Shown here: in pieces, positions 257 to 46,531 of the stretch
How positions within the stretch are numbered: position 1 is the first letter of the stretch
How the letters are laid out: each line of letters begins with the position of its first letter
Assembly: GCA_001724265.1 (NCBI GenBank)
Contig: MEDY01000345.1
Span: 1-46,531 of the forward strand
From: Rhizaria sp. SCN 62-66
Taxonomy: Eukaryota
Length of the DNA: 46,531 bases
Direction: 5' to 3'
Program-made: the position numbers and the translations under genes
Notes under the pieces: generated by a model
Told to the model about the DNA's origin: nothing
Database searches by the model: none
What the model saw: the letters and a program-made list of their open reading frames with translations, nothing else

Positions 257-3200
257 TCACTTCTTGTTATTTAGCTTGCTATCTTTCTCATTCTGCGTAG
301 GAGTCTTGTCCATGCTGCGCACGTGTTGACTAAGACCGTAACCGGACCCAAGACTGCCACTGCCGAATGAGTTTGCAAAAACTGATTTGCCTGTACCTGC
401 ACCACCACTACTACCACCAATAATTGACTGAATAGAGCTCTTCAAGCTACTGCTTGCGCTGGCGGTGGCACTCGCGGCCCCTGCGTTGCCGCTCTTGGTT
501 GCTTGCTTGGTAGTGCTTTTACTCGATGAGGCCTTTACTCCCTGTGCTCCTTGTGACGGTGTCTGCACCTGGACCGGCTTTTGCGGCTGCGCCTGTGGCG
601 GCGCATGTGACTGCGATTGTGTGCGTACTTGGGCTTGCGTCTGGGCGGCAGCGCTAGCTAGTCCAGCCCGACTACTGACCACAGACTCAGTTGCGGCCGC
701 AGGTGCGACAGCAGCTGGACCAGACTTCTTGCTCGTGATAGACTGTTTGAGCATATCGAATGCCGCGTTCGCGCGCGCCACGGCAGTAGGCTCACGCGTA
801 GGGGGCCCAGCATCAGAGGCAGGAGAGTGCGCCGCGTGCGGAGCGGTCTTAGCCGCGGTCGCAGTGAAAAGAGTCGGGTTCATCCATGCAGGCCCCAGCG
901 CAGTGCCGGTGACAGCGGCTGCAGCAACACTTGCGTTTGCATTCACCCCAGCACCTGCTGCAGCGCTCGCAGCGGAGACGCGCGTGGGCGTAAGGAACGA
1001 CAAGAACGGGGACCCACGCGGTGCCGCCGCAGCCGCCGCCGCAGCGGCAGCAGGTGCAGTTGCAGCAGCAGGAGCAGCGGCGACGAGGGGCGTCTGTGCG
1101 GGTGCGGGATGCTTCTGCGCAAGCTTCTTGCTTGCAAAGTCACCAGTAGACACGAGCGCTGCGTTCCAAGGACGGCGAGAGAGACCGCTTTGAAGATTCA
1201 TCATTGCGGACATCAAGGGCGGTGCAACCACACCCGCCGCAACCGCGTCGCCGATCGCAGGACCGCGAGAAGTGGTATTGGCAGCATGAGGCGCAACAGC
1301 TGCGTTGGTGCGCGAGCCGGCGTCAAGCCGGTGCGCGAGTTTGCGCTGACCCAGGAACTCCTCGGGCGTGCCCCAGAAGAGCGCGTCAGCCGCGTAGTTA
1401 GAGTACACTACAACGGGCGCGTCACCGCCGTCGCTATTGCAGGTGTTGTCTCCGGTGCTGGAGCCAGTGTCGGTGGCGCTATCAATGGGTAGCCCGGAGA
1501 AGTCCATGCGCACCACAGCGCCGCTTGCGGTCACAGTCGGAATCGCGCTCCGGTTCTGCCGCGTGCCGTGCGCGGACGAGCTCGCAGCTCTGACGCGTGC
1601 CAAGTCCGCCGGCGCAAGCTTGCGCGCGAGCTTCTCCATCACGCGGCGGTCAGATCGCGCGATCACGCGCACCTGCTGCAGTGACATCACGCGCGGGGCC
1701 CGGTGCGATGCCGCGATCCCCGCCGCGGAGGGCAAGTGCCCGTCGCGCGCAGACTGGTAGCCGAGGATACCCGCGCTCACGGTGCCACAGCCCGCGCTCG
1801 CGTTGCCGCCAGCGCCGCCGGACTCGTCCGCACTGGCACTTGCACTCGCGAGCATGGGCGCGGCGTCAGAGGCGAAAAGCGGCTGCTGCTGCTCCAGCTC
1901 GGCCTCGTCCAGGAAAACCTCGTTGAGCGCCTCGACCAGCAGCGACAAAGGACCGCGCGGCGCGCGCACGATTGCCTGAGACGTGACATCACGGAGCTCG
2001 CGCGCCGCGCGTCGGGAGGGCTTCGTCACGGCCGCCGTAGCCGCGGTCGTGACAGCAGGGGCAGGCGTGACGTCTGCGCTCTGAGTGGTATCGCTCGTTG
2101 GAGTCATACTCGTCGCAGCATCCTTGCTCTCAGAAGAAGCGTTAATATTGAGGTTCTTGGAAATGTCCTCTCCAGCGACTCCCGCAGCGCGCTGCGTCGC
2201 CTCCGCCCCAGCTTCGGCCTTCTGAAACTCGTCGACTGCGGCGTTGGCGTGTTCCACGCCAGCGGGACCCGTGGCGACGGCGTACACCATCATGTCGTCA
2301 TCAAGCGAGCGCAGCGCGCGCAGGCCCAGAGGGTCGAACGCGCGCTCGGGCAGCGACACGGGGCGGTACTCTTGCGCGGTCTCGAGCCACACAGTGGACG
2401 GCAGCAGCGGCGTGGGCCGCGGGTTCTGGCGGCGGCGGCGCTCGCGCATAACCATCACGCGTACGTGTACGGCGCCCGCGTCGGCCCACTGCGGCAGGAA
2501 CGGCGACGGCGACGACGCGGGCGTTGCGTGGGACGCGAGCATTGCGGCCGCACCCTCCCACGACGAGTCGAGATTCACAGCAGTCTCGTCGCCTGCGCCA
2601 GAGGCGGCGGCGACGAGCGCGGGCGGCGGCAGCAGCGGGAGCAGCTGGCGCGCCGCAGGCGAGGTGAGCACCGCGGGCGACACGTACGGCAGCCGGAACG
2701 AGCCCGTGAAGAACACGTCGCTCGGCGCCAGCGGCGCGAGCGTCGGCGGCGCGTGCGCACCTGCGCTGCCGTCCCCCGCGGGCACATGCGCGCCGGTTTC
2801 TGCGACGGCGAGCGCAGCGGCGGCGGCCAGCGACGCGTGCGTCTCTGAGCCGTCAATCGCGCGACGGTACGCGGCGGCCGAATGGCGCGCGCGCGGGCCG
2901 GCGTAGAGCGTGAGCCGCAGCGCGCTGTCGATCAGCGGCAGCCCGCTCGCGTGCGGCGACAGCGACAGGTGCGACAGGAACGGCGGCACTGCGCTCGACG
3001 ATGATGTCTCCGCAACTGCCAAGGCGTCGCCGCTTTCGCTGCTCTCGTTGCTGCTGGTGTCCTTCGTATTTGCTCCAAGGATCGAGGCCGGGTCGGGGTA
3101 CACGTGCGCGTACACCGGCATCAGCACAGGCGGCTGCTGCGACGCCTTCGCGCGGCCCGGCGCCGCCGCAGCAGCCGCGGCCGCACTGCCCTGCCAGAGT

Positions 3201-6200
3201 CGCAGCGCCATGACGTCAGCGCTCACAGTCGGCATGTGCGGGTCCGCGGCCGCGGCGCGCGTCTGCTCCCAGCTCGCCGCGGCAAGGCGCTCCACGGTCG
3301 CCGTGTCGGCCTGCGGGTACATGTTGCGGAAACGGTCGCGCTCGGCCGCGGCCACCGCGTCGGGCGTCGCCCCCGCCAGCCCGTACAGGAAGGCGTGCAC
3401 GGTGCGTGCGGCCTCAGGCTCCGTCGCCGACACGGGCTGCCGTAGCGGGTTATCGTCGGCCAGCGCGATGTGGCGCAGCGAGACGGGCTCGTCGCGCTCC
3501 AGCGCGGGCGCAGGGGCGAGCGCGAGCGGCACCGCGGCCGCCTCGGCCGTCGCCGCGGCCAGCTCGCGCAGCATCATGTCTTTGGCGGCCGCCTGGTCTT
3601 CCGCGGCGAGCTGGTTCAGCGACGCCGTGGCGGCCTGCACCTTGGCCATGGTCGCCTGCAGCCGGTGCTCGCCCGCGGCGCCCGACGCGCGCATCGACGC
3701 CAGCCGGCGCTTGGCGTCCGCCGCCGCCACGGCCTGCGTCAGCGTGTTGCGCTGCAGCCGGCGCCGGTCCGCGGCTTCGGCGTCCGCGGTCGCGACGGCC
3801 TGCATCTCGGCTTGCTTCTCTGCGCGGGCGCGCTCCACTCCGGCGATGGCGTCAGCCATGACTGCGCTGAGCTCGCTCGCGCCAGTGCCGTTGGCCGCAC
3901 TGGATGCGGCCTCGGCGGCTGCAGCGCGCGCGTGGGCGTGGTCCTACTGGATGCGCTCGCGCAGGGCCTCCGCAGTGGAGAGCGCGGTGGCGCGGCGCGT
4001 GGCCACGGTCTCGAACTGGGCCAGCGCCCCGAGCACCTGCGTCTGCAGCTGCTTTGCGATTGCAAGCGTCGGCGCTTTGTCCATCAGCGCGCCCGCGGCA
4101 GCGGTGTGCGCGAGCAGCGCGTTCTCGCGCGCGGTCCACGCCGCGTTGTCCGCCGCGGCCGTGATTGCGCTCTCAATCGCTGCGTCGGTCGCGGCGGCTG
4201 TAGCCTCGTCGGCGTCGCCGGCCAGCTCCGACGGCGCGTTCTGCACCAGCGCCGCGATCGTGGCCTCGCACATCTGCGACAGCTGCTGCACTTCGTCGCT
4301 CAGCAGCGCCAACGCGGCCTGGGCCTCGGCCGCGGCGGCGGCCACGGTCTCCGCGATCTCGCGCTCGCGCGCGCCGCTCATGGCGTGCGACTGGATCGCA
4401 AATGACGGCAGCGCAGACAGCAGAGGGGCCGGCTGCGCGTGCGCCGGCTGCGGCAGGATCGAGCGCCGCGCGGGCTCGCCGCCGTGCGCGCCTTGGGCGC
4501 CCTCTGCGGCAGTCTCGGTGTGCGCGAGAGGCAGCAGGCGGCGCGCTGACGCGGGCTTGGCCACCAGCGACGCCAGTCTGACAGCGTTCTCTGCAGCGGG
4601 TGCGTTTGCTGCGGGCTTCGGATTCCCGACGGACTGCTCCGCTGGGTTAGCCTCGCTATCGCCATCGCCACTGGCGTTCTTGGACTTCGATTTGAGCAGC
4701 GCGAAGCGCGAGGCGTCGCGGCGCATCTGCGGACGGCGGCCTTCACCGGCCTCGAGCCCCGCGGCCGCGGCCGCAGCCAAGTACCGCGCCGCGGCCTGTC
4801 CAGAGAGGCCGAAGCCGCTGCCCGCGTGCGCGCCCACGGCGGCAGCCGCGGCTGCAGCTTCTGCAGCTTCCGCGGCAGCGGAGGCAGCGGAGTGAGCGTT
4901 GTGGCCCTAGGTGTTGTCGGCGTCGTCACCATTGCGCGCGAGCCGCGCTAGCAGCGGGCGCGAGGCCTGCAGCATGCGCGCGACGAGCTGCCCGCCCACA
5001 GTCATTTGCAGCGGCGTCCGTTTCACAGAGCGCGCGTGAAAGGAGTACTCGCGCCGCGCGTCCGTGACCACAGCTCCCACAGCGGGACCGCCGCCGCCGC
5101 CGCCGCCGCCGCGCGTCTCTGCGAGCAGCTCCTTGGTGCGCGCCATGCGTGCCTTGAGCTCGGCGAGCGCTGCGCGCCGCGCCGCCGACGCGCCGGGGCC
5201 CTTGGTGGTGATCGCGGCGGTCAGATCTGCAGTGGAGCGCGCCGGGGTATCAGCGAGCGCGGCGCTGAACAGCTCAGCGCGGTTGATGGCGGGCTTTGCG
5301 GGCGCGGCAGCTGGCGCCACCGACGCCGCCACAGGTGCTGCCGTAGGCGCTGTCGCGGGCGTGACGGACGCAGCGGAGTCAGGAGCGGTCGCAGAGGCAG
5401 AGACTGAGGCAGAGGCGGCTGCGGGCTTCTGCTTGGCGGGAGGCACGAAGACGCCCGCGGCGCGGAGCTGCGCACGCATCTCGGCCAAAAGCTCCTCCTT
5501 GGTCTTGGCGCGGCCCAGCGGCACAGGCACGGACACGCCGGACACAATCACGCTCCCGCGCGCGGGCGCCACGGCCGCGGATACGGGCTTCACCGCCGCT
5601 GGCGTCGCGGCCGCGGTTGGGGTCGACAACGCAGACGCGGCGGCGGAGGGCTCTTGGTAGCTCCACAGCGGCTGCTGCTTCGCTGCGCTCGCGCTGGCGC
5701 CGCGACCCTCGTTATCGTTGCCGTCAGCACCTTTGCGCGCACGCGTCTGCTGAGGGCCGTCGTCGTCGGCGACGGTGTCGGCGAGGTTGTGGAGTGGCGA
5801 GTTGCGGCGCGCAAAGGCCGCGGCGTCGTGTTTGCTGAGCCCCGCGGCGCGGAGCTTGCGCGCGGCGATGTTGACGCTGAGTCGTTCATCAACCAGCGCT
5901 TGCGCGAGGCGTGCCGTCTCCTCCGCGGCCGCGACGGCCTCGTCGCGCGCGGCCTGCTCCGCGGCGGCCTCTTCCGCGCGCAGCTCGTCGCGCAGCGCGG
6001 CGCGGCGCGAGACGGCCCCGCGCGCGACAGCGTCGGCCGAGTCGAAGGCGTCGCGCTGCTGCGGCACGCCCAACCGCTCGGCGGCCTGCGCGGCGCGCTC
6101 CTCGGCCAGCAGCCGGTCCAGCGGGCGCGCGTCGCCGTACACGCTGCGGTGGGCCACCGCGCGCAGTGTCTCGCGGTCCACGCGGTCCGAGCCGGCGCGG

Positions 6201-9200
6201 TTCAGCATCTGCAGCCGCTCCAGCGTCTCGCGGAAGCGCATGTCCGCCTCGGCCTGCGGGGCTGTGTATTGGCGCGAGACGCCGAAGTTGGCCGCCTGGT
6301 GAGTCGTGACCGCGATGGAGCCGAACACGGGGCCCTGCGGCACTGGCGGCGAGGGGGGCTTCTTCCTCCGCTTGCCATCGAGCAACGCACTGCCACTACC
6401 GCTGTTGCTGTCGTTGCTGTCGGTACTGCTGTTGTTGTTGGTGTTATTGGCGTTGTTGCGGCGCGCGAGCGACTCCTGCTCCGCGACCACTGCCTCGGCC
6501 TGCCCGCGCGCCCACGCCCGGAGCTCGCTGCGCCGCGGCACACTCACCGCGGCGTCCTTTTCTCGCTGCCGCTGCTGTGTGTCGCGCGCGTCGAGGTCTT
6601 GCTGCTGGCGGTCCAGCGTCGCCGCGCGCACGTACATGTCCCACGCGGGCCACGCATACCGCTCGAGGTAGTACACAAGCCGCCCCGGCTCCCACGTCGC
6701 CGGCACGCGCAACTCGAGGCACGCGTCGGCGAAGCTCCCCGGCGGCGCCACGCGCGAGAGCAGCTGCGAAGGGTGCGCGCAGCCGCTGGCCTTAAGCGCC
6801 TGCGCCAGTGCCTCGGGCGGCACGTGCGCCAACTGGTCGCCGCCGTTGCGTACCGCAACCGCGCCGCCACTGCCATCGACTGCATTTGTGCTGCTGCCGC
6901 TGTTGGGACTGTTGGAGCCGGCGACGCCGCCAGTGACGTTGCTGTTGCCGAGCAGCGCAGCGAGCGAGTCGCGGTGCGCCTTGGCGGTGGCGCGCTTGGA
7001 CAGCAGCTCGCGCTCGCGGCGACGCGCGGCGTCGGCGGCCGCGGCCATGCGGTCGTCGTTGCTACCGTCATCCGCCGTCCCTGTAGAGTCCACGGGCGTG
7101 GCGGCAGCGGCGGCGGCGGAAGTGACAGGCGGGAAGAAGACGGAGCCGTCGTGCGCGATGTGCGCTGCGGGTTCCCGGTTCTTACTCGCGCTACCGCTGC
7201 TGCTGCTGGCAGAGGCGCGTCCGTTGCGCAGCAGCCTCAGAGAGCGCGGTCGCGCGCTGCCATCACTAGCAGCGGCGGTGGCGTTCTCGGCAGCGTTGGC
7301 GTCGGCGACAACGCTCGCGGCCTCGGCGGCCTCGGCGGCGGCGCGCGCGGCGACTGTCGCCGTCTCGAGCGGCGCGTTGGTGATGGCGCCGGCGCGCGTG
7401 TTGGTGACGCCGTAGCGCGCGAGCATCGCTTTGTAGCCGGCGGACACGACGCGCGGGGCCTGTGCGAGCGCGCCGCTGCCGACCTCGAACGCCTCGACGC
7501 CGGGCGCGAGGTCCAGCTCGTGCGTCTCGCCTTCACTGTCGCCGCCAGCGCTATTGCCGCGGGTGCGAAGAGTCAGCGAGGGCGCAAAGGTAGACGCGCC
7601 GGGCGGGAGGAAGTGCACTGCGACGCGCAGGCGGTACCCGAAGCCCTTGGAGGCCTGCGGCCACGCGTCTTCGTCCTGTGCCAGTCCGGCCTCGCGCGCG
7701 AGCCGCGCCGCCGGCGACCCGTCGTCGCTCCCCGCGCCGGTGCCAAGTCCGTACTTGCCGCGCGCGGCCTCGGCGGCGGCCTCGGCGCGTGTGAGGCGGC
7801 GCGACCACCAGCGTGAGCCGTTAAGCAGCGCGTAGCCCTGTTTGTTCATCACCGTGTTGCGTAGCGTCTTGAGCGCGAGGAGACGCTCGTGCTGCGCGAC
7901 GGCCGGGTCAAACGTGACGAACCCCTCGGCCATCATGGCTTCGAGCAGGAAGTACCGCGCGTGCGTCGTCTCCTCGACCGTCTCGCTGCGCTCTTGGTTG
8001 CCGGCGTAGAACAAGTGCGCCCACGCGCGCGGCGACGACGCGAACTCGGCCATATCGTCCCCCACAGGGTTCGTTGTGTCCGACTGCTGCGCGCCAAAGT
8101 ATCGGTTCATCGCCGGGTTGGCCCCGCCCGCGGCGGACTTGTTCCACTGCGCGCGCGCCCGCTGCGCCTGCATCAGCGCCAGCCACGCCGCGGCCTCGGC
8201 CGGGGAGGCTTCGTCGCCGAGCTCGCCGACAAGCTTCGCCAGCGCCGTGTCGACGGCAATCACGCCCGCGGGGGCCATTGCGCGCTCGCGGCGGCGGCGC
8301 TCGCGTTCACCCGCGTCTAGATTGGGCGACTGCGCCTCGTCCAGCTCGTCCACGCCCCCGTTGCGCACGCCCTTCGCTGAGGAACTGCTGCTGCTGTTGT
8401 TGTTTTCGTCCTGCGCGAGAGACTGCAGGTACGCTGGGTCGCGGTACAGCGGGTCCCAGTGGCGCTCGCGGCGGTCTGCGCGCTCGCGGGTCAGCGACTG
8501 CAGCCGCACGCGCACCAGCCTCACGTGCGGCAGCGCCGCCGCAGCCGCCAACGGGTCCACCGTCGCCGAAGTCGCATCCGAGTCCGCGGTCCTCTCGGCT
8601 GCGGAGTCTGCGTCTGCGTTCGTGGTGGGAAGAGTGCGGGGGAGGCGGTTGGCGGCAGCTTCGGCCGAGTTGGCGGCGAAGTTAGGCCGCAGACACGTCA
8701 CAGCCGAGTCGAACCGCGGGGGCTCGGACAGCAGACGCAGGCGCGCGCGCGCCACGGCGGGCTTTGGGACGTATTTATCGCTCAAATCACGCGCTAAGTC
8801 GAGCATGCCTGACCCACCACTCACACTATCACTCGACTCACTGTCGTTGTTATGATTATTGTTATTAGACTCATCGGCATTGCGACCGCGGCCGCGCGGG
8901 CGGACGTAGAAGGACAGGATGCCGCCGCGCGGGGGCTCTGCTGTCGCGGTGTCAGGGACACGGAAAGGGTCAGCCAAGTCGAGGTCGTCGGCCACAGAAG
9001 TCTGCGCCTTGCGGTAGTCGAGCGCGGCGTTGAGTAGCGCCAGCTGCTCCTGGTTGTGCTGGCGGATCAGATCCAGCGATAGCGGGTAGTACAGGGCGCG
9101 CCCGTCCCCGTTGTCATGTGTACCCCCATGCGTTCCGCCGTGTGCTCCATTGTTGTGTTGCGGGAAGACGTCTTTGAGCGCGGAGTGCTCCTGCTGCCGC

Positions 9201-10387
9201 TGCAGCGCCGCAGCGTCTTCCCCCTCAGCGCTTTGACTGATATCGCCGCCGTGGAGTGTGTTTCGTAGACTGGCGGCCTCGGCGCGGCGGAGGTCTTCGC
9301 GCTCTTTGACGGAGCGGACATAGCGCGACGACTCGTCGATGACCATCGCCGTCGCCGCGTTGGCCGGCCCGCCGTGAAAGAGATCCGGGTGCACGCGCAT
9401 CGCCACGCGCGCGGCATAGTCGACGGGGCTCTTCCGCAGCGCAGCCGCGGCCGAGAGCGGAGTGCGCACACTCGACTGCAGCCGCGCCGCGCCACTTGCG
9501 GTCGCGGTGGTGTCCTCGCCCCCGCCTTCCCCCATAATAGCGGGGCCGCCGCGGCGCGTGCGCGTGCGGGACGTGGGACCCGCTCCGGCGCCCGCGCCTG
9601 CGCCGTAGCTTGTGGAGTAGTGCGCTGCGTTAGCGGCTGCTTCGTCGTCCTCGATTTTGCGCTGCAGCCGCGCGCGCGCGCGTTCCTCGATCTCCTGCCA
9701 CGCCTCGCCCATTGCGCGGTCCGCGGCGGCGCGCGCGGCGCGGGCCTGCGGGGACAGGTCGAGCTCGAACTCCTCGCGCTCCAGCTCGCGCGCGCGCGGG
9801 ATCCGGGCCGCAAACGCGCGCTGCTCTTGCTCGATCGCCGCAGCGGAGCCGGCGCTAGCGGCGTCGTACTCGCCGGCCGCGCGGGAGAGCTGGGCGTGCT
9901 CGTGCTCGCGCAGCAAGCGCTGGTAGAGCTTCTCCTCGACCTGAGCCTCGAGCCGCGCCTGGTTGTACCCGGCGTCCGCGAGCGTCGTCTCGGTCTCCAT
10001 GTCTGTGGGGCGGCTTAGCTTGAGCAGGTCGAATTCGCTGTAGTCGTGCGCGCGGCGGCCAGAGCCCGGTAGGCGCTCGCCAGGCAGCGCACCCCAGGGG
10101 ACGCCGCCGTCGCTGGCGCCGTTCTTGCGGTGTTTGCGGCCGCCGGGGCCGTCGCTGTGAGCGTCGTCGGTGTTGCCGTCAGAGCCGCTGGCGCCGCTGC
10201 CAGGCGGGCGCGCGGTTGTAAAGTGTGCGCGCGGGCCTGAGCGCGCCAGGAGCAGCGAGGATGTTGTGGGTGTGAGTTGGGGACGCGCGGCTGTTGCGGA
10301 GAGCTGTGGCAGCCGCGCGGGGCCGACAAGAGCGGCCAAGTGGTGTGCTGAGCTCTGCAGCGCTCGGACGCGGGCGCACCCGAGCAT
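257..10387 (-). CDS. Giant (~3376 aa) intronless Ala-rich protein with a probable mitochondrial presequence and a TCAIM/DUF4460-like HPD domain; contains two in-frame TAG codons
   Basis: ORFs 4907..10387, 3944..4837 and 257..3859 share one frame and are separated only by TAG (4907-4909, 3944-3946) with open linkers. ATG at 10387, TGA at 257-259; 10131 nt = 3377 codons. The N-terminus is Arg/Ser/Ala-rich and lacks acidic residues. Motifs VHPDLF...HNQEQLALLN...LSFYVR recall TCAIM from memory, not from a search. Confidence 0.75.
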
Positions 10388-28734: not shown

Positions 28735-28894
28735 TTAAGTTTGTACTTTCCAAGATAGGGAGATTAGATGTAGCATCAGAATTTTAGGGGATATATGAAG
28801 TTTATATGCAAGGAGACCAAGAAATATGCTGAATATGCTGTATATCGAAGACTGTATTGAAGGGAAATAACAATTAAGTTTGTACTTTCCAAGA
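28735..28894. repeat. 21-bp perfect direct repeat (TTAAGTTTGTACTTTCCAAGA) at 28735-28755 and 28874-28894
   Basis: Read directly; lies in the AT-rich spacer next to the transposase remnant. Confidence 0.8.
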
Positions 28895-32400: not shown

Positions 32401-34891
32401 GCTTGTTGACGTTGCCAGTCGCAGCAGCAGTAGCCGGCGCATCGGCCGCTACCACTGCCGGACTCGCCTCTGTAGGAGCCACACGAGGAGTGCTGCTGCT
32501 GCTGCTGTTGCTGTTATTGGTGTCAATAGCCTTGTTCTTCTGATCGGACTTCGCGTCAGTGTCAGGCGTCTTCTTCTTTTCGCTGTCACTGACTTCGTTC
32601 TTGCCGTCAGCGTCGTGGGCCTTTTCGCCGTCATTGTCGTCATCGTCTTTGTCATCCGTGTCTTTCTTCTTGCCACCGCCTGCGGCCTCCTCGGCCTCTT
32701 CTTTGGCAATCGCCTTACGGAGCGCAGCAATGATCCGATCATTACGCTTTTTAGTGGCGGCAATATTGGCGCGTGCTTGCTTCTCAAACTCTTCGTCACT
32801 TGTATCTGGCGTGAGATCACTGTCGCTGCCACGACGGCCGAAACGTGCAGCAGTTTGCGCATCGACCATCATCTCGAGCAGTTCTTGTGCGGTAGGGCCG
32901 CCGGGCACGAGCATGCATTCGAGGTCCTCTTCCTCATCTTCGTCATCGTTGTCGCTCTTGTCGTTGTCATCGTCGTCATCGTCGTCGTCACTGGCCTTCT
33001 TCTTGTCGTGGAACTTCTTGTCCTTCTTCTCGATGTCTGCGTCGGCATTGACAGTGGCAGTCTGAGGCTTGCTCTTCGTGTCGTCGTCACTTGTCGCAGA
33101 GCCACTCTTAGCAGCAGCGGCGGCGTCGATATTCTTGGTCTCACTGCCATCAGCTTCATTTGCAGACTTCAGTGTGCCCTTAGTCGCAGCGATGTCAACC
33201 GCCTTGTCATCAGCAACCTTAGGTGCAGCGACCTCAACAGCAGCCTCAGGTGTAGCACCAACTCCATCTGCAGCCTTAGCCTCGGGCTCCTTGACATCAG
33301 CGTCATGAGCAGCATCAGACCCCAAATCCGACTTCGGCGCAGACACTGGTGCAGGCACATGCTTCGGTGTCGGAACCAGCTTCGGTTCAAGCTTCACCTC
33401 ACGCACAGGCTCAAGCTTCAACTCGGGCTTAACAGGCTCCGGCTCAGGCTTAACCTCATGTACAGGCTCAGGTTTCGAGTCAGGCTTGTTGTTATCATCA
33501 TTGTCGCCGGCCTTGGCTGTCGGACTGCCACGCTTATCCCCAATGGCGTCCTCGCTAGTCTCCGCAGCAGCAACAACAACTGCAGCAGCAGCAACATGGG
33601 CGTCAGCTGCATGCGTCACTGCGGGGGCCACAACCGGAGCGAGGGGAGCCTTGGCTGACGGCGGCCTGTTGCTGTCGTGGTCACCTGAGGGCCAGCGCGC
33701 CAGTGTACGCACTGGGGCCGCGGAAAAACCGCCCGGCAGCACTGTACCAGCACTAGCGCCAGCGCCCGCGCCGGCGCCAGCAGGAGAGGCATGAACGGGA
33801 GCGCGCGCTGCTGCAGACGCCCGAGCACGGGTCGCTGCAGTCGCCGCCGTCGCAGCAGCGCCAGCGCCAGCGCTGGTGCCAGCGCCAACGCGGGGCGGAG
33901 GGCTGCCTGCGGTCTGGCGCGGGTTAGCATGTGCACCGACGGGACGCGCTGCGTGTATGCCACCGAGAGGTGCGCGGACGTTACTCGTGTTCGGAGCGTG
34001 GCCGTGACCGGGACCGACAGCGGTAGCGGCAGCGGGCCGTATGCTGGAGCCAGCGCGCACAGCCGCGGGGGCGCCGGTAGCGCTAACAGGCGCTGCGGCT
34101 GCGGCGGCGGTCGGGAGGCGCGTGCCGCCACTGGTGGGGGGCCGCACCTGCACGCGGGTGCCCGCAGCGAGACCCAGGTGGAGCGCGGGGGCTGCGGGCG
34201 TCTGAGTCACCGGCACGGGTGCGGGCGTGCGTGAGGGCGCGTGTGCGGGCGCGTGTGCAGCGACGCGACCGTGTGCAGCGCCAGCGGCAGTGCCGGTGGC
34301 TGCGGTGCCGCGGTGAGCCCCGGGCGCGGCGGTGGCGGCCGTCGTGGAGAGGCTCGAGGGGCGCACGGAGGGCACGAAGGAGGAGAACGAGCGCGGCGCA
34401 GGGCGCGCCATGGGCTGCACCTGCGGGCGACCGAAGCGGGCGCCGGGGCGCGAGGCGGCGGCGGCCGGGGCCGATGTGCGCGCTGCGGGAGCCCCTGTCG
34501 CGGCCGTCCTCGTTGCGGCTGCCGTCGGGCCAGTCGTAGAGGCAGCAGCTGGGGCGGGTTGAGTGCGAGCGGGAGCGGCCGAGACCGAGCGGCGCGATGC
34601 GGGGACAGTCGTGCTAGCAACGGGCTTGGCGGCGGACGGGGGCATGGGAACTCGAGTAATCGGTGCTGCACTGGGCGTCCTCGTGACTGATGCTGGCGCC
34701 GGGCCGGAGGGAGGATGGGGCTTGGCGTGAGCGGGAGGGTGGCCCTATGAGCTGACAGATGCAGGACCACGAATGCGCGAACCGGTGCGCGCAGCGGGGG
34801 CTTGCTGTTGTGGTCTGGCGCCGAATGGCGCAGTCGGGGCCACGCCCGGGACCACTGGAGGGCGCGGGTTTAGACTTGTTGTGTTAGGCAT
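29451..34891 (-). CDS. Large low-complexity protein with a C-terminal RING-H2 finger (putative E3 ligase); one in-frame TAG (34745-34747) and an apparent 16-nt deletion frameshift at ~32263
   Basis: C-terminal CLICFEQMKAGDEVVTPLHCRHQLHWECGSKWWERSKLCPMCK, then TGA. The frame of ORF 31760..34645 extends upstream through a single TAG to an ATG at 34891 (MPNTTSLNPRPP...). It switches to the frame of ORF 29451..32309 inside an internal duplication. Confidence 0.7.
32070..32990. repeat. Internal tandem duplication (~590-nt spacing) in the RING gene with a 100-nt identical core (32164-32263 = 32757-32856)
   Basis: Both copies encode EEEDLECMLVPGGP(T/S)AQELLE...TAARFGRRGSDSDLTPDTSDEEFEKQARANIAATKKRNDR. 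Confidence 0.9.
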
Positions 34892-35498: not shown

Positions 35499-37230
35499 TT
35501 AGAATGAGAGCCCATTGTGCAGCACGACACGCGGACCCATCTTGCCCGGCACCAGAGACCGCTGCGCCCTGATGCCCTTGCCCACGGCCCCATTCGCGCC
35601 GCCGCTACTGACACTTCCTACCGGCACATTGCTGCCTCCGCCGTTGCCGTGACAAGCCGCCCGATTGCCGGCCCCAGTGACGAGCGCAAGCGCGCGCGGG
35701 TCAATCGCTGCACACGAGCGCGCAAGCGCCTTGGCGCGCGTCAGCGACGTCGGACTGCGCTTGACAGTGTCGAGCGGAGCGGGCAGGCCTGACTTGGCTT
35801 GCGCCGCAGGACCGCCCTTCGACGGGGACGCGGGCTCTTTGCTTTCCTGCGGCGACTCAGCCCGCGGCAGCCGCGCCGCGGGGTGCTGTTGACCGCGCAG
35901 CAGGGTGGCGTTAACGCGCGGCTCTGGCGCGTCCAATGCGAGCGAAACGGGGTGCTGGACCGAGAAATTGTCGGGAAACGCCCGGACCTGCTGTTGCTAC
36001 TGCACACGTGACTGTGACGAGGGGGTGATGGCCACAAGCGAGGAGTGCAGTCCATGAGCGCAGCCGCTGGTCGTGGACCATTGTCGCGCCAGCGCTTGCG
36101 CTTGCGCCTGCGCTGCGGTGGCCTCGGCAGCGGCTGCAGCGGCAGATGCTGTGTGCGTGTGCGTGTGCGCGACCGTGCTCTGGACAGGATGCGGCAGATA
36201 CGGGCCGTATGCGCCAGCGGGAGCAAATGCCGTCGCAGATGCAGCGGTAGCGCCACACGCGCACACATGGTAGCCACCAGCAGCGCAGCCACAAGCGACA
36301 CCGCTATAGCCAACTCCGTAGCCGGAAACAGAGCTGGTGCCAGTGCTATGGTTGCTGGCCAGAGCCGCAGCGGGCAATGTCACACAGGCACTATTGCTAC
36401 TGCTGCTAACAAGATTCGCGTTGTTGTTGGTGATGTTGCTGCTAACGTTGACCGCGATAGTGCGCTCAGCGTAGTAGCGCAGCACAGCATCGCGACCCAT
36501 CACAGCGGCCGCCACCGCAGCGTCCGCGCGCGACGCTACCACGGGCGCCCACACGCTGGGGCCTGTCAGACCGTCGCCCGTGCTAGCCGCAGTCTGCGCG
36601 GCTGCGGCTGACGCGGTTCCAGAGTTCGCGAGCCGCGCCGCAGCGGCGGCGGCGACTGCGGCGGCCGCAGGTGGGTGCGGCTGCGACGCGAAAAGCCCAG
36701 CCGCGGAGGCGCCAGGCGTTACCACAATGCGCCCACCGGGCAGAGCGGCGCGGGCAGCGGGCGCAAGCGCGCGCTCGGCCTGTCCCAGCGCGAAGGACGA
36801 GCTGGGGCGCGGGGCCGCGGCGGCGGCGGCGCGCACGGCAGCAGCGCGCGCACCGCCGGCAAGCATCGTGGCCTCCTGCGCGCGCTTGCGCGGAGTGCGC
36901 GTCATGCGGACAGGCCGTGCCGCCAGTGTCGCGGGCGAGGAAACGTCCCAGAAAGAGTTGGGCAGACCGCGGGGGCCGTATGCGCGTGTGACGTGCGCAG
37001 AGGCGACAGCGTGCAGTGCAGCGCAGGCGGCGGCGCGCGAGGGAGGTGTGACCGGCGCGCTCTGAGAAACTTGGCGCTGCCACTCAGTCTGTTAAGGGTC
37101 ACAAATCGGGGCATGCTGTGTGAGAACAAAATTCGAATTTGTGCCGGTTTAGGCCGTTATCAATGCATGTGAAGACGAACAAACTGGACCACACACGTAC
37201 CTCTGAAAATGGTTGAGGATCAATCTGCAT
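35499..37230 (-). CDS. Hypothetical Ala-rich protein (~539 aa); exons 37230-37201 and 37088-35499; in-frame TAG at 35997-35999
   Basis: MQIDPQPFSE|TEWQRQ... joined by a phase-0 GTACGT..AACAG intron. ORFs 35997..36905 and 35499..35936 are co-frame across the TAG (context SRVQ*QQQVRA); TAA stop. Confidence 0.7.
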
Positions 37231-37983: not shown

Positions 37984-40900
37984 ATGTCGAAGGACCTCAA
38001 GACCCCTTTGTTGGGTTCTCCGCCGCCCTCAGATGGCAATTTCCCCAAGTTTGCGCCCTCCGACTTTGCGTCTGACTCGTCAAGCTCGTTCTCGGCCTCT
38101 CATCCAAGCGGCAACAGTGCTGTCAACGCTAATAACACAGACTCCTATGTCATGCCTTCTTCAAGCTCCGTGTCGTCCATGAAGACCCCAGGCGGGCTCG
38201 CTGCAATCATCCAGCGACGTAAGGCGCGCTCACAGAGCAGCTCATTACCAGATTCCGCGAGCGACAGCAGCGAGAAGAAGGACAAGGGCGCGGCCCGCGA
38301 GGCCGTGTTGTGGACGCGGTGGATGCTCTCGCTGCTGCTTATCATCGCCGACGCGCTGCTGTGGGGTGTCGGCGTCTTCGCGGCCGAGTACGGGCTCAAT
38401 TGGGCGCGTTTTACGGCTGCGCTGGACCATTATGACGTTGAAAGCGACCTCGCCGACCTCATGGTGGCATCCGCAGTGCGTTGCTTTTTCGTGTTGTTCA
38501 ACCTTGTTACGCTGCGCAACGACGAGCGCCGCAGCGCCGTGCTCTCCTTCTTCTCCTACTGGTCTGTCGCGCTGTCCGCCATTGCCGTGGTGTGCAAGTG
38601 TATTCTCTACGCCGAGTGGGGCAACCGCGTCGCCCCGTCCGTGCTGCTCGCGCTGGCGGTGCCACTGACGCTGGCCCAGTTCTACGCGCAGACAGGCCTC
38701 CAGCGACCGCTGCGGCCCGGAGAGGGTGACCCAGTCACGGCCGAGGAGGTCGCCGCCAAGGCCGAGCGCGCGCGCGCCAATGCGGCGGCGTAGCAGCGCG
38801 CATCCGAAGTCGCTGCGACGCTGCAGGGGGCCGAGCTCGAGGCGCACCTCGCCAAGGAGGCCGCGCGCGCCAAGTCCGCTGCGTACGTCGAGACGACGCT
38901 GGCCAACTCTGCGGCGCTGTCGGCGTCGAAGCAGCGCATGCGCGGGCGCGAGCTACTGTTGCTGCTGCAGCCGTATTTCTGGCCCGACGGATGGGCGAAC
39001 CGCGTGCGCGTCGTACTCACGTGGATTGCGCTCGGCGCCTCGCGCGTTATGAGCATCATGGCGCCGCTCTTTGTTGGCCGCGCGACGGACATGCTCGTGC
39101 GCGACCACGAAGTGCCGTGGGTGTACATCTCTCTCTACTGCGCGCTGACGTTTGGCTCGACCGGGTTCAAGCAGCTGCAAGCGGTGTTTTACATGCGCGT
39201 GAAGCAAACGGCGTTTGCGCAGGTGTCGAGCTTCACGTTCCGCCACATCCACAGCTTGTCGCTGCAGTACCACCTGAATAAGAAACTCGGCAACGTGCTG
39301 CGCAGCATTGATCGCGGTATTTCCTCCGCCGAGACTGTCGTGTCGGCCGTGTTCCTGCTTATGCTGCCCGCGCTCGTCGAATGCACTGTGGTGTTTGTCA
39401 TCTTCTACATGCACTACAACGAGCCGCAACTCTCTGCTCTCGTCTTCGCGTTTGTTGTTGCGTACCTCGTGCTCACGGTCAAGCTTACGCTGATGCGCAA
39501 GAGTCTGCGCCGCGCAGCGAACAAGTACGACAACGAGCTGCACGACCGCGCGACGGACTCGCTCATAAACTACGAGACCGTCAAGTACTTTGGCAACGAG
39601 GAGTACGAGACCGCGCGCTACACTGAGGCCGTCACCAAGTTCCAGGTACGTTATCGAATGCTATTATTACATTATATTGAACTCCTCATCTCCTAAGACA
39701 TTGTTCCACTGAACTATATGACTAATTCGCCCCCAAATTTCCTTTATTTTTGATCGTATTGTTTCTTTCCAGTCGTACGCAGTGTCTACGCAGCGGTATA
39801 TGGCGCTGCTGAACGCTACTCAAACGATGACGATCCAATTTTGCCTCGCGTGCTGCATGTTCGTGACCGCGACGCGTGTGGCTGCGGGCGACATGACCAT
39901 CGGCCAGTTCTCGGCCATCAACGCCTACGTGCTGCAGGTTTTCGCGCCGCTTTCTGCGATGGGCAACCTGTACGACCAGATTGTGCAGGCTTTCACGGAC
40001 CTCGCGAACCTGTCTGAGCTGCTGGCGGAGGAGCCCGACGTTGTGGATGAGCCCGATGCGCGGCCGCTGCAGTTGCGTGATCCGGCCCGCGGCGCGACGA
40101 TCGAGTTCCGCGACGTGTGCTTCAACTACCCCGAGCAGACCGCAGGGCTGCGCAACATCAGCTTCACTGTGCCCGCGGGGACGACGACGGCGCTTGTCGG
40201 TACCACGGGCAGCGGCAAGTCGACGTGCGCGCGCCTGCTGTTCCGCTTCTTCGACCTGAAATCGGGACAGATCCTCATCGACGGACAGGACGCCAGCAAG
40301 GTCACGCAAGCCGGGCTGCGCGCGATGCTTAGCGTTGTCGGTCAAGACACCGTGCTATTTAACGACACGCTGTACCACAATATCTGCTACGGCCGCCTCA
40401 ACGCGACGCATGAGGAGGTCGAGGCTGCGTGTCGCAGCGCGCAGATTCTTGACTTCATCCTCTCGCTTAAGGCGCAGTTTGAGACCAAGGTCGGGGAGCG
40501 TGGTCTGCGCCTCTCCGGCGGCGAGCGCCAGCGCATTGCCATTGCACGCGCACTGCTTAAGGACTCCCCCATTGTGCTGCTCGACGAGGCCACTTCCGCG
40601 CTTGACACGGTCAAGGAGATGGAGATTCAGGTACGTTATCTCAACATCAATAGTCGGCTTCATGTAACACTTGGTGAAAGCGCTGCGAACAACATCATAT
40701 TGTAGTTTTTACTGAACTGGCGAATTTCTACTTAATTTCTCATGTTACTCACGTCTTGTTTGCTTCTTACACGTACACACAGGGCGCGCTGCGTTCCCTG
40801 GAGAAGGGCCGCACGACTCTTGTTATCGCGCACCGCCTGAGCACTGTGATGCACGCCGAGCAGATCCTTGTCCTGGAGCAGGGCGTGATCATTGAGCGCG

Positions 40901-41652
40901 GCACGCACGCCGAACTCATCGCCCTGGGCGGCAAGTACGCTGCGCTGTGGAACCAGCAGGCCACCAAGGCTACCGAAGACGCCGCGCGCGCCGCCGCCGA
41001 GGCGCAGGCCGAGGCCGAGGCCGAGATCGAGGCCGCCACCGAGCACAGCGGCAACGACGGCAAGCACGGCGCAGGCGCTGGCGCTGGGCCCCGCCGGCCC
41101 GGAGGCGTTAACACCACCTTCGGCGCCCCTTCCCCTGTGTCTGTCGGCACTGGCTCTGGCTCTGGCTCTGGCTCTGGCTTTGCTTCTGGTGCTGGCGCTG
41201 GTGCTGGACTGCCCCCGCGCGCGCCTGCGTTGCGCTCGCGCTCACCGTCACAGCCCACTCTGTTCTCCCCGTCCAACTCGTCCCACTCCCCTTCTCCCGC
41301 CGCCTCAGCGCCCGGGTCTGCGGCGGCGGCGTCGGTGGCCGTGACGGGCTCGGAGACGCCGTACGGCCGCCGCAGCCCCGCGGTCTCGGACGCGGGTTTC
41401 CGCGAGTATGTTGACAGCGAAGCGTTGATGCTGCCCTCGGTCGAGAGAGCCATGTCCTCCGCCGCCGCGGCCGCGGAAGCCGCCGCCGCCGAGGCCTTGC
41501 CGGAGCCGGAACCCCGCGTCGCCGGCGCAGCCCAGTCGCAGGCTAAGGCCGTGCCTGAGCTGGCCGATGCTGAGGAGGAAGAGGAGGAGCAACAACAGAC
41601 CCACTCGACTGCTGCTGGATCTGGCAAGAAGAAGGGCAAAGGCCGGAAGTAA
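37984..41652 (+). CDS. ABCB half-transporter, ABCB6/HMT1/ATM1 family, with an N-terminal extra TM domain (~1129 aa); exons 37984-39645, 39773-40630, 40783-41652; in-frame TAG at 38791-38793
   Basis: Family motifs [25 protein letters not shown]; Walker [10 protein letters not shown]; signature [15 protein letters not shown]; Walker [18 protein letters not shown]. Two phase-0 GTACGT..CAG introns. The linker 38794-38937 is open in frame after the TAG; TAA stop. Confidence 0.92.
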
Positions 41653-41950: not shown

Positions 41951-41953
<3 letters not shown>

Positions 41954-41986: not shown

Positions 41987-42899
41987 CTCTGCGCGATACT
42001 CTGTATTGACTGCACATGCGTAATTTGCTACGTTTTGCATCGTGGGCGCAAGAAGGTGTTACTTTGCAACACCTTTTTTATGCACCCCCTTGCCCCCCTC
42101 CCTCCACTGTTCATTGATTGCCCCCATTTACCTCGTTACCCTTTCGTACTATTTCATGCAGTTTTGCTGTCTGCCGCTGCACTTGTGCTCAACACCACAA
42201 AAGCAACCGAACTGCTATGCTAGTGAATCTTCGTCGTCGTTTCGCAATCACATTATATGCCGTGTGTGGCTCTCTCGCGCGCTCGCTCCGCGCTCTCTGT
42301 CAGCTCCTGCCTTTGCTTTGTTTTACCACCAATATTTGTTTTCCGATAAGCTCTCATATATCTATGTCTCTCTGTACTAGTCTGTTCGAGCTATCTTGCT
42401 GTGTTATACGCTCACTGTATCTGTCGATCATGAGACGTGCGCTCGTGGACCCGCGTTGGTTGCGGTCTGTATCGCGCTTGTCCGACGATTGAGCAGCTGA
42501 TTGACAGCAGCACTACGATGTCTGGGACTATAATATATGTTGGTGCCATTGCAGGAGGCTCACTGTGATCTTTGGCTGTTATTTTTTCAAGTGGTTCTGA
42601 GATATATCTTTGTTCTCTCACTTACATGCTTTTTTTCTGTTCTAAGCCGGCCAAACGATTTTCTACGTGGATAATTTGAGCTTGAATACAAAATATGTCT
42701 TACATATTATAGTTCAAGTCTATAGTTTCTCTGGCTGGCGTCAGAATACATAATGCAGAGTGTTTTATAAAATCTCTTCGACTCGGACACTGGGCCGAAA
42801 AATCTGTGCGCACGGTCACTTTAATTTTGCGCGACCCGCCGCTTACCGCGTAGAGATGACCAAGCAAGAGGATGAAAGAGTTGCGCAAACCAAGTAAAC

Positions 42900-43696
42900 A
42901 TGGTACGTTGACATTTCTCTCATATCATATAATTTTCACTGCAATTTTCTATCTATTCTCTTCATTCACACTTTCTTTGACGGTCAGTGGCGGGTTCCCT
43001 ATCGCCTCAAAGTGGTGCGCATTGATTGAAGCACAGAAGCTCCACTTAATCATCTTTGCTGCCTTCCCACGCTCACTGTTGGCTTTGTTGTTTTCGTTAA
43101 CCAACTTCAATAGGTCGAGCACATCTGGCAGAAGCCCGCTAAGACGGGCAAGGTCTTTGGCAAGGGTAACCGCACCTGGTACGTCTCTCTTTGTCTCTTT
43201 GCCCTCTCAGTGAGGACTCTTTTGCTCAGTCATAGAATCTTGTTCCAGGTATTGCATGCACGTGACTTCTTTCATTGTGATTTTATTTGCTGGTATCTGC
43301 GATATTTGTTCTAATAATTGGCGTCCAGCTCACTCATAAACTCTTCTGTCTTATTGGTTGCCTGATCCCTATAGCCGTATCACTAACAACCACCGTGGTC
43401 TGATCCGCAAGTACGGCCTCTACGTCTCCCGTCGTTGCTTCCGTGAGATCCACAACGACCTCGGCTTCAAGAAGGTACGCTTGCCATCGTTTCTCCTTGA
43501 TGTCTCGTTCACGCGTGTTGCTTCACCAGAATATGCTTTGCGACTGCGCTCATGCGTGGTCATTTGCTACGTAATAACTGTGCATGCTTGTGCATGCTTG
43601 CTTTTCTCACATTAAGCTCACTGAACTTAACAACATTCACTCACTCCTCTGCTACTCACTTTCTGCAACCCCTACTTTCACACACAGCTGAACTAA
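42900..43696 (+). CDS. RPS29: 40S ribosomal protein S29 (uS14); exons 42900-42902, 43114-43178, 43375-43474, 43688-43696
   Basis: Spliced product MVEHIWQKPAKTGKVFGKGNRTCRITNNHRGLIRKYGLYVSRRCFREIHNDLGFKKLN* with the GLIRKYGL hallmark. Three phase-compatible GTACG..AG introns; TAA stop. Confidence 0.9.
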
Positions 43697-44446: not shown

Positions 44447-46531
44447 TTAAACTGCTGCTTCTATGACGGCGCGTGTCGCGCCGCCAAACGACGTGTCGGC
44501 GAGCAGCGACGCGAGGTCGATCAACCCCTAGTCGCCGCCGTCCAGGGCGGGCGCGGCCGCGGGCGGAGCATCACTAGAGCCGCTGGCGCCGGCGAAAGCG
44601 AGCATCACGAACGGGTCGCCGTCGTTCTGCTTCGGCTTGGCGGGGGTCGCCAAGTAATCTATACGCAGTCGTGATAAATCTATCGTTGATATGGTGTCGT
44701 TGTGAGTCGCGCACCTGTCCATTCTATCGCAACTCGAGATTCTGCTCAGCGATAGCGCGCTGCCACTGTCGTCGCGCTCGACATCGCCCAGCGCGGCAGG
44801 GACAATGCCTCTCTGCGACGTGCGCCGCGCCTGCGCCTGCGGGGAAGACACTGCGGAGCCTGCGGATGAACCCTCCGCGAACTACACGTCCGGAGCGCCC
44901 GACAAGGCCAACATGCGCTCGACGTCCTTGATCTTGATGCGGACGGCGCGCACTACGGGCATCGCGAAGTCGGACTTAGCCAGCTCGTCGGCGCTGGCGC
45001 AGGCGTTAATCACGTCCTCGAGCATCGTCGCCGACTCGGTCGCCGCGCGCGCCGGCGGGTCCGTCAGCGCCGTTGCAAGCGGGGTCAGCCGCTTAGCGCG
45101 CAAGACCGAGAGCAACTCAACATACCTACACTGAGGAGCATGTGGCGCAAATAACAATCACCATCGTAATGCATCCACGATAACGCCATGACAATGCACG
45201 GATTTACGTGGTGACTGCAGTACAAACTCACGCAGCCCTTGCCAGTAACTGCGCCAGTCACTTGGGCACCCATTGGATGCGAGCATTGTCGACTGACTCG
45301 TTGACATCCTGCATGGGTACATCGGCAATAATAGCATAACACCCAAGCGCAGCTGTGCAAATAAGCGGGTGTTCCTGATTGTGGGCTTTCTCTACGACAT
45401 AGCAGTAGTCAACATGCACATTATTGACAAGAAATTTCTTGCCATTTTTGTCACTCAGAAGCCCCTAGAATTTACGCTGAAAGCTACCTTTGAGGTCTGA
45501 TGCACGATCGCGATATCGCCAGTGCTGAACAGGGGTTGTGACGTACTCGACCTGTAAGAGAGTGATACGCAGATCAACGGCTGGGATACCCGATAAGTCC
45601 TCGCTACTACTTGCACCCGTGTCATTAACTGCGTTCAAGAGCGCGGCAGTACTCGACTTTGTGCCAGGAGCAGCGTTGACGAGTACCTTTGAGCACGGCG
45701 TCGGGTCCTCCTTGGCAAAACGGTATGCGTCGACTGCAACATGATTGAGGTCCTCGGGGAAAGCCATGATGGCATGTTGGTTGTCATTAGCTAGTAGCTG
45801 CAACACAAAGTGTTCGAGCTTCTCTGCCACATGATCTGCCGTTAGCGCAACACCAGAAATAGTATTGCATGGCGTGTCGTCTGTAGCTTGGCTTGAAGAA
45901 ATCTTTGCCATCAGCGACAACTGTGAAAGGCCCGAAGAAGTCGCCGTGTCAATGACGTAGCCAGTCGAAGAACCCCGGGTCTATGAGCGCTTTAACGCAT
46001 AGACTCGAAAGGGCTGAGGGTGATTGCATGCGAACAAAGCTGCCTTGAAAAAAGAACCTTTAGCACTGGAAGTAAGAGGCTGAAAAAAGAACGAACGAAT
46101 AGCACACATCCCGGCGATATTCTGTTCACTCTTTTCCGCGATCACCTGGTTTAACACCCAAGCAGCCAACTCCGAGGTTACCATGAAGACAGGTTTCCGC
46201 CAGATTTTGACTTTTTTTTTCGGGTCGGATTCACTGTTTTCCGGGTCGGATTCATTGTGTTCCGAGTCGGATGCATCATGGCTGCAAGACCTGTAGGAAA
46301 ACAAGTGACCTGAGTCGATTGCAGGCAGCACAACAAGGTGGCGCGCTTCATGGTTGCGTGCAAGTGAGGCGCTGTTGCTCGAATATGCTTCAATAGAGCA
46401 AGGTGGTGACTGAATTGTAACGAAATGAGAGACATCAGGCGTGGACAGGCGGTATAGGAATGACAAAGATTGGAATACCGAATCAGGCATGTTGCGGACA
46501 ACGTCAAGCATGATTTCAGCGTTAAAATATT
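44447..46531 (-). CDS. 5'-partial hypothetical gene (or decaying gene) with four in-frame TAG codons (45981, 45465, 44882, 44528); junction near 45130-45320 unresolved
   Basis: ORFs 45981..46511 and 45465..45920 are co-frame, and the frame is open from the window end to a TGA at 45258 except for two TAGs. ORFs 44882..45157 and 44528..44851 are co-frame and open to a TAA at 44447 except for two TAGs. Joining the two blocks needs an intron without a consensus donor. No recognisable domain. Confidence 0.45.

Follow-up and report, generated by a model that had tools for sequence, protein, structure and literature searches.

In-frame UAG codons in a GC-rich nuclear contig from a wastewater-bioreactor eukaryote are probably read as sense

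Contig MEDY01000345.1, analysed here over its full 46,531 nucleotides (the window), is a nuclear eukaryotic contig in which GC-rich stretches (60-73%) alternate with stretches of 45-55% GC. By k-mer search, the sequence occurs in metagenomes of bioreactors and wastewater: parts of it are present in nine run records (five studies in all), including one marked as its possible source and one polyA metatranscriptome that contains a small share of it. Our results indicate that the organism, an uncultured, GC-rich and intron-bearing eukaryote of wastewater bioreactors, uses UAG as a rare sense codon and UAA and UGA as its sole terminators, a reading to which we assign a probability of about 85%. The initial annotation had proposed this code, and the proposal is upheld by homology across one TAG of the window and across those of a related contig, by a coding-frame scan, by the occurrence of the same TAGs in other assemblies, and by the lack of TAG among the gene ends.

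Results

Homology across in-frame TAG codons

The nine in-frame TAGs listed in the initial annotation are all present, at 4907, 3944, 34745, 35997, 45981, 45465, 44882 and 44528 on the minus strand and at 38791 on the plus strand. As far as sequence comparison goes, TAG 45465 is the best single site, with homology on both sides. It belongs to gene D (44447..46531, minus strand), whose 5' end lies beyond the window and which comprises the parts D1 (45258-46529) and D2 (44447-45157), ending in a TAA at 44447-44449. As read from the DNA, D1 and D2 are probably joined by an intron, or else are two genes. Gene D matches no Pfam family. An exhaustive HMMER search with D1 against 1.84 billion representatives returned three matches (P0005, P0006 and P0007). 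P0005 is the window's own fragment, running from the first methionine after TAG 45981 to TAG 45465. P0006 (42% identity) and P0007/P0010 (39%) align over TAG 45465 free of gaps, and the residue aligned with the TAG is H or T. Conserved blocks surround the site, LR(I/V)(T/N)LL.. and ..F(Q/K/V)(R/S)(K/R)F-[TAG/H/T]-, and an invariant VDYCYVV motif lies 18 codons downstream of it. Moreover, a search with just the 68 codons past the TAG gives E = 2e-7 for both P0006 and P0010, at the expected position in those proteins. The D1 family (P0006-P0010) is very small, has no name and is entirely metagenomic, and VDYCYVV is common to all its members. A D1 intron starting with GTACCC at about 45321 was considered and rejected, as the homology to P0007 runs on to ..WVPK.

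Around the other TAG of D1 (45981..45983), the frame is open for 182 codons before it (P = 1.6e-4) and for 171 after it (P = 3e-4); here and below, P is the chance probability of an open frame, derived from the density of off-frame stops. The part of D1 downstream of this TAG is homologous to P0006 and P0007, and the part upstream has no detectable homologue (E = 2.2 against P0010). Within the upstream part, run X4 carries a 21-nt in-frame deletion variant at 46216. Given the missing upstream homologue, it is the frame statistics and this in-frame variant that speak for the site. In D2, the coding signal is strong upstream of TAG 44882..44884 and weaker downstream, where 144 codons remain to the next TAA or TGA (P about 0.1). 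The last TAG of the gene (44528..44530) stands 26 codons before the terminal TAA and is weak taken alone (P = 0.6).

A metagenome scan with a 99-residue piece of a transposon found in the window (see below) yielded five contigs, L001-L005, and L001, L003, L004 and L005 carry one common JGI sample-series prefix. We infer that L004 and L005 come from the same genome as the window, from the common sample, the repeat family and the composition. Positions 1-2331 of L004 hold an ORF of 777 codons, ending in TAA, that would encode a P-loop NTPase-like, coiled-coil protein; it contains TAGs at codons 483, 705 and 742 and neither TAA nor TGA. A homologue search returned four proteins, among them P0013, which is the same gene cut exactly at TAG 483. 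The alignments of two paralogues, P0011 (74% identity) and P0012 (66%), extend past TAG 483, with P and K at the site, and about 220 well-conserved codons follow it. P0011 also has a Q at TAG 705, in the block DENDID.VS-Q-NDID, and aligns through TAG 742 with an E. Homology on both sides of an in-frame TAG was therefore found at 45465 and at codons 483, 705 and 742 of L004, and the support at 4907, 3944, 38791, 45981 and 35997 is confined to frame and codon-usage statistics.

The family of the L004 ORF (P0011-P0014, P0020 and P0021) is multicopy, has only a weak Pfam match, to AAA_16, and occurs on paralogue contigs of up to 203 kb. P0012, P0020 and P0021 all stop at ..LLLQITAS, where L004 and P0011 run on; these copies may carry a further TAG or an intron at that place.

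Contig L005 contributes a Rcd1/CNOT9 gene (2646-4031, minus strand; TGA end) with a TAG at codon 362, a dymeclin gene (TGA end), an ankyrin protein gene (TAA end), an ATP-synthase alpha/beta-like gene (TGA end) and a WD-like ORF with one TAG. The Rcd1/CNOT9 protein is unusually divergent, with about 45 C-terminal glutamines after the TAG, and only about five profile columns separate this TAG from the end of the domain. A word-indexed search with it returned itself and one plant protein (36% identity), in an alignment ending before the TAG, and its PDB alignment ends six residues before the TAG. PDB sequence searches with the WD-like gene and with the L004 ORF gave no useful match at their TAGs.

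Coding-frame statistics

All TAG, TAA and TGA triplets on both strands were scanned with a codon-usage score trained exclusively on six TAG-free, Pfam-supported coding segments. With flanks of 60 codons, an in-frame coding signal on both sides was found in the window at three TAGs (38791, 4907 and 3944), at no TAA and at a single TGA (21819), which lies inside an AT-rich intron of a Rab gene. A second scan covered the window together with L004 and L005 and asked for at least 80 stop-free codons on both sides, with the frame best of six on both sides. It was passed by 7 of 27 TAGs, 1 of 9 TAAs and 0 of 49 TGAs (Fisher p = 0.0011). Removing one transposon-derived site left 6 of 26 TAGs (p = 0.0031), and the window alone gave 4 of 22 TAGs versus 0 of 47 (p = 0.0085). 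The single TAA that passed is at position 3196 of L004, and the translation of the frame that follows it was judged not to be protein-like.

Open-frame statistics are strong for TAGs 4907, 3944, 45981 and 38791 and for TAG 483 of L004. An open frame counts for little by itself in GC-rich DNA, where long ones are common. One of 212 codons, at 22882-23520 (plus strand), immediately precedes the acyltransferase gene and is in frame with it, with a TGA between them and without coding signal. We regard it as a long ORF that arose by chance in this DNA, and on this ground openness by itself was rejected as evidence.

The annotated coding sequence, 9,539 codons in all, contains 8 TAGs (0.84 UAG per 1,000 codons), no TAA and no TGA.

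Gene ends

We checked the coordinates of the 14 gene ends listed in the initial annotation, and they comprise 10 TAA, 4 TGA and no TAG, as claimed. Eleven of them have domain or long-ORF support; those at 11301, 12076 and 26788 lack domain support, and the ORF ending at 12076 continues into an intron past its RING-H2 domain. The claim that TAA is a true stop is likewise supported: it directly follows the GCCS motif of the Rab protein and the end of the RPS29 profile, and it ends at least eight domain-supported genes of the window. None of five further ORF ends on L004 and L005 is a TAG. The absence of TAG among these 19 ends has P = 0.014 if a TAG share of 20% is expected, in what is a small sample. 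Base composition behaves differently at the two kinds of site. Past real stops the mean GC falls (from 0.67 to 0.49 at 17943 and from 0.61 to 0.35 at 29451), and past the TAGs it does not (for instance 0.72 to 0.73 at 3944). These counts do not fit a joint reassignment of UAA and UAG (code 6), since 10 of the 14 listed genes terminate with TAA and the 9,539 codons contain none in frame. Nor do they fit a code without a dedicated stop, of the Condylostoma or Blastocrithidia type, as neither TAA nor TGA occurs in frame.

Assembly and splicing

DNA contigs of another study (X3) are identical to the window over 34787-38542 and 38519-40814, including TAGs 35997 and 38791. In addition, several proteins predicted from other assemblies have their ends precisely at TAGs, namely P0005 (6 contigs), P0013, P0023, P0015 (4 contigs) and P0024. 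The presence of the same TAGs in independent assemblies argues that they are not assembly errors. The 60 nt on either side of the TAGs have a GC content of 44-76%, and no TAG lies within an AT-rich, intron-like stretch or beside intron signals. As these contexts lack the AT-rich GTACG signals of the introns, the TAGs are not taken to be intronic. Runs X7 and X11 (polyA RNA), X4 and X3 were compared with the window over 26532-46531 as assembled contigs, and much of the raised depth in this comparison is low-complexity cross-matching.

Genes with in-frame TAG codons

The initial annotation had described coding-like continuation past every TAG. At 34745 there is no coding signal on either side. 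Gene A (257..10387, minus strand) would encode an alanine-rich protein of about 3,376 codons that ends in a TGA at 257-259. Its ORF extends over 3,456 codons without TAA or TGA, with GC of 0.72, 0.59 and 0.80 at the three codon positions. It matches no Pfam family, nor do the two segments downstream of its TAGs. TAG 4907..4909 is codon 1907 of this ORF, in a region of 0.72 GC, and its frame is the best coding frame on both sides. It follows 1,829 open codons (P = 5e-13); downstream, 320 codons lead to the next TAG (P = 0.044) and 1,228 more follow, so that 1,549 codons separate it from the next TAA or TGA. For that next TAG (3944..3946, codon 2228), too, the frame scores best as coding both before and after it, with its 1,228 open codons downstream at P = 4e-11.

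The ABCB-type half transporter gene (37987..41652, plus strand) has three exons, matches Pfam ABC_membrane and ABC_tran and ends in TAA; its introns (39646-39771 and 40631-40782) both begin with GTACGTTATC. TAG 38791..38793 falls after an N-terminal hydrophobic region and before the core transmembrane domain. It is preceded by 287 open codons (P = 7e-4) and followed by 300 (P = 6e-4), and on either side of it the frame is again the best coding frame. For the N-terminal region 60-420, which includes this TAG, none of 8,000 scored candidates proved to be a homologue. Gene C (35499..36905, minus strand) is a low-complexity ORF of 530 codons with a TAA end and no Pfam family. Its TAG (35997..35999) sits within a glutamine run, ..VQ-TAG-QQQ... 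The frame stays open for 364 codons ahead of it (P = 8e-4) and 165 beyond it (P = 0.04), and is the best of six on both sides with weak scores (0.02 and 0.10).

Gene B (29451..34744, minus strand) is of low complexity, with a C-terminal RING domain (Pfam zf-RING_2) and a TGA end at 29451-29453. TAG 34745..34747 stands upstream of its long ORF. As a sense codon this TAG is doubtful, and it may belong to the 5' leader of the gene. Gene B has an internal duplication, in which a repeated ARFGRRGSDSDLTPDTSDEEFEKQ... block occurs in two frames, with a frame change near 32.3 kb; the duplicated block includes ARFGRRGSDSDLTPDTSDEEFEKQARANIAATKKRND.. and DLECMLVPGGP.AQELLE. The duplication and the frame change together suggest an intron or an assembly collapse in the repeat. 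A variant of this gene in run X4 carries an in-frame insertion of 9 nt at 31839. Two additional in-frame TAGs, at 10397-10399 (minus strand) and 37927-37929 (plus strand), are upstream of the likely start methionine and are probably leader sequence.

Discussion

In this study, we asked how UAG is read in the organism behind the window, and the data point to a sense codon. In terms of mechanism, a tRNA with the anticodon CUA would decode UAG, and eRF1 would recognise this codon poorly or no longer, by analogy with all known cases. Among the other explanations, the one that survives best, with a probability that we consider low, is that UAG is ambiguous or leaky. It would then terminate in some contexts and be read through in others, through near-cognate tRNAs or a context dependence like that of Condylostoma or Blastocrithidia. 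The rarity of TAG (8 in 9,539 codons) is in line with this possibility, as is its absence from the short, probably highly expressed genes for RPS29, Tim10, SF3b10 and Rab. Moreover, termination at the Rcd1/CNOT9 TAG would be tolerable, being so close to the domain end, and ARAGORN found no tRNA-CUA in about 72 kb (the window and L001-L005); it found no tRNA gene of any kind there, in an amount of sequence far too small to judge. However, none of the 14 ends of the window or the five of L004 and L005 is a TAG. The triplets directly after the nine TAGs (GGC, GAC, GGC, CAA, ACC, GGG, TTC, GGG and CAG) contain no common readthrough motif. In addition, inefficient readthrough would be very costly at TAGs with 1,549 and 1,228 codons still to be translated.

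Less probable still is a standard code in which the TAGs are changed at the RNA level, either by U-to-C editing (TAG to CAG) or by removal within unusual GC-rich in-frame introns. The organism does have introns, one of them with an in-frame TGA, and the RNA contigs listed do not bridge any TAG. Yet its known introns (two in the ABC transporter gene, three in RPS29 and one in Rab) are AT-rich and start with GTACG, and the contexts of the TAGs are unlike them. At TAG 45465 and at codons 483 and 705 of L004, the alignment with homologues passes through the TAG without losing a residue, so nothing is spliced out at these sites. As for editing, nuclear U-to-C editing of such a kind is not known to us, no literature search having been aimed at it.

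The least probable explanation is that the TAGs are ordinary stops, between adjacent genes, in chance-open GC-rich sequence or in pseudogenes, or are sequencing or assembly errors. At 70% GC, long ORFs often arise by chance (9 TAAs and 49 TGAs also have at least 80 open codons on both sides), C-to-T changes in the abundant CAG (282 CAG versus 59 CAA among the annotated codons) favour TAG among nonsense mutations, and decaying transposon copies carry TAGs, but the homology across TAG 45465 and the L004 TAGs largely refutes this explanation for 45465 and for codons 483 and 705, the scan singled out TAG as lying in the best coding frame on both sides, GC stays high past the TAGs and real intergenic regions have 45-55% GC, and the 9,539 codons contain no frameshift and no TAA or TGA beside the TAGs, which independent assemblies share.

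Several observations weigh against UAG being a sense codon, or against parts of this reading. TAG 34745 has 54 open codons upstream (P = 0.26) and is probably non-coding on that side. Taken alone, the open-frame statistics are weak for 44528, 44882, 45465 and 35997. Genes A, B and C and the D2 part are of low complexity and without homologues, so that frame statistics are all that speaks for them, and several single-site P values lie between 0.04 and 0.6. The window and L001-L005 (46.5 kb plus 26 kb) contain no recognised tRNA gene and no eRF1 gene. The membership of L004 and L005 in the same genome is not based on linkage, and the L004 ORF could be a young pseudogene of its multicopy family. 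The transposon copies of this genome have TAGs where others have CAG, GAG or TGG, showing that plain nonsense mutations to TAG do happen here. At the RNA level, polyA contigs (X7) match the window at 100% in places, and none among the pieces listed bridges a TAG or an intron, which leaves room for U-to-C editing. As to the amino acid, the TAG-aligned positions are variable, the glutamine call is weak, with a preference in Rcd1 of 1.2 bits for Q over X, and an ungapped alignment of the Rcd1 helix to the human sequence would, by our reading, put a leucine at the TAG.

Meaning of UAG

Glutamine is weakly favoured as the meaning of UAG on sequence grounds, with a chance only slightly better than even. 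Glutamate would come a distant second, lysine, leucine and tyrosine would each be less probable again, and what is left is spread over other residues. If UAG means glutamine, the code would be the same as NCBI table 15. In favour of glutamine, P0011 has a Q at TAG 705 of L004, in a conserved block, and TAG 35997 stands in the context Q-TAG-Q-Q-Q. Scored against the Rcd1 Pfam profile, the Rcd1/CNOT9 protein obtains 193.6 bits with Q at the TAG, 193.0 with W, 192.9 with E or K, 192.6 with S, 192.4 with L or X and 192.3 with Y, and the match with Q reaches column 256 of 260. The residues aligned with TAGs, H, T, P, K, Q and E, were all called polar and occupy mostly variable positions, and by our reading most TAG contexts are hydrophilic. 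Polar residues at variable positions make leucine unlikely.

Comparison with known codes

Reassignment of UAG alone is known in several protists, and the case reported here is a further example of a known pattern. The initial annotation had named Iotanema spirale and a rhizarian as precedents. Both are valid, and the list was incomplete, as phyllopharyngean ciliates also belong to it (PMC11687900). The fornicate Iotanema spirale translates UAG as glutamine and terminates with UAA and UGA (Panek et al. 2017, PMC5304391). The present case resembles Iotanema in the reassignment of UAG alone, in keeping UAA as the dominant stop and in the favoured, albeit weakly favoured, glutamine. Unlike Iotanema, an anaerobic metamonad studied by its transcriptome, the organism here is GC-rich, was met in metagenomic DNA and has Tim10-family and ATP-synthase alpha/beta-like genes. 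In the rhizarian exLh (Sainouroidea), UAG encodes leucine, on the evidence of 384 in-frame UAGs in 71 genes at conserved leucine positions (PMC5304391). That case has in common with ours a UAG-only reassignment in a non-ciliate protist, found in data from another target. In contrast to exLh, UAG is rare here and occupies variable polar positions.

Among phyllopharyngean ciliates, UAG alone was reassigned once to leucine and twice to glutamine, and UAA became established as the favoured terminator. Two of the genomes contain suppressor tRNA genes, in a data set that is partly metagenome-derived (PMC11687900, 2024). Shared features are the reassignment of UAG alone, the preference for UAA and the origin from metagenomes. 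The window, with its introns, its 53-73% GC and its multi-kb genes, is what we take to be non-ciliate-like. A different uncoupling of the two codons is seen in Oligohymenophorea sp. PL0344, in which UAA encodes lysine and UAG glutamate (PMC10553269). UAG and UAA are uncoupled in both organisms; both are sense codons in PL0344, whereas TAA terminates here. Code 6, in which UAR encodes glutamine, is used by many ciliates, diplomonads and ulvophytes. If a mutated tRNA-Gln turned UAG from stop to glutamine here, the mechanism would in principle be shared with code 6. UAA is not reassigned here.

A word search of open-access text found, among the papers it listed, none that describes a code variant in an activated-sludge eukaryote. 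A catalogue of giant viruses reports alternative codes in viral bins from anthropogenic habitats and, in the parts available, holds nothing on the organism studied here (PMC13524828).

Few nuclear code changes have parted UAG from UAA; the sources cited above report a fornicate, a rhizarian, three phyllopharyngean events and one ciliate with two meanings. Each independent case tests the coupling of UAG and UAA through eRF1 and wobble decoding, and also the passage through a stage of rare, low-cost codon use. Three properties make the present case useful: it is genomic rather than transcriptomic, its genome is GC-rich, with TAG a single transition away from the highly frequent CAG, and it still uses UAG rarely. 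As to its origin, our proposal is tentative, at somewhat less than an even chance: an unsampled lineage of aerobic, GC-rich, intron-bearing protists, recurrent in wastewater bioreactors (runs of at least five studies), would have reassigned UAG alone, independently of Iotanema, the sainouroid rhizarian and the phyllopharyngean ciliates. The rarity of UAG and its restriction to variable polar positions would then mark an early stage of the process. If so, the tRNA-CUA, eRF1 and the order of codon capture would be readable from existing public contigs. Contigs of up to 203-263 kb from the organism or its relatives are present in public assemblies, and the genome is probably recoverable from existing public data. 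On the practical side, standard gene callers have cut the proteins of this organism at every TAG in public collections (P0005, P0013, P0015 and P0024), and eukaryotic bins from wastewater metagenomes need code-aware annotation.

Further features of the window

The Pfam scan of the window identified, besides the ABCB-type half transporter, a LRR protein, a SHIPPO-repeat protein, an acyltransferase, a RING protein, Tim10, SF3b10, a degenerate DDE_1 transposon, a three-exon Rab GTPase, RPS29 and a RING-H2 protein of the Rbx1/APC11 type. No Rfam match was found in the window, and a protein atlas placed the L005 dymeclin in broad Eukaryota clusters only. The transposon copy (27200..29200, minus strand; Pfam DDE_1) is pogo-like, degenerate and interrupted by frameshifts, and is not evidence on the code. 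Its depth is about 12- to 20-fold above that of its flanks in three runs, and it has many genomic copies. L001 is 99.9% identical to window positions 26729-28330, and the copies on L002 (981-2900), L003 (244-1209), L004 (6034-6564) and L005 (5570-7295) have 82-88% nucleotide identity. The copy on L002 has a 640-codon open frame, in which the 'X' is an N and not a TAG. The TAGs of the transposon were rejected as evidence of decoding, as the copies are decaying and the aligned codons are CAG, GAG and TGG.

The Rab gene (21474..22474, minus strand) matches Pfam Ras on all three exons and ends in ..GCCS followed by TAA. Its intron at 21759-21894 is AT-rich, of the form GTACGG...TCTAG, and contains the in-frame TGA at 21819. 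RPS29 (42899..43696, plus strand) has four exons, the third covering positions 19-53 of 54 of the Pfam Ribosomal_S14 profile, and ends in ..GFKK|LN followed by TAA at 43694-43696. Its introns (42902-43116, 43179-43370 and 43475-43687) begin with GTACGT or GTACGC. Altogether, the spliceosomal introns of the window are about 125-215 nt long, those of the ABC transporter and Rab genes about 125-150 nt, and AT-rich. Their 5' end is unusually strict, GTACG(T/C/G), and several have a ..ACACAG 3' end; such strict intron ends might help to identify the lineage.

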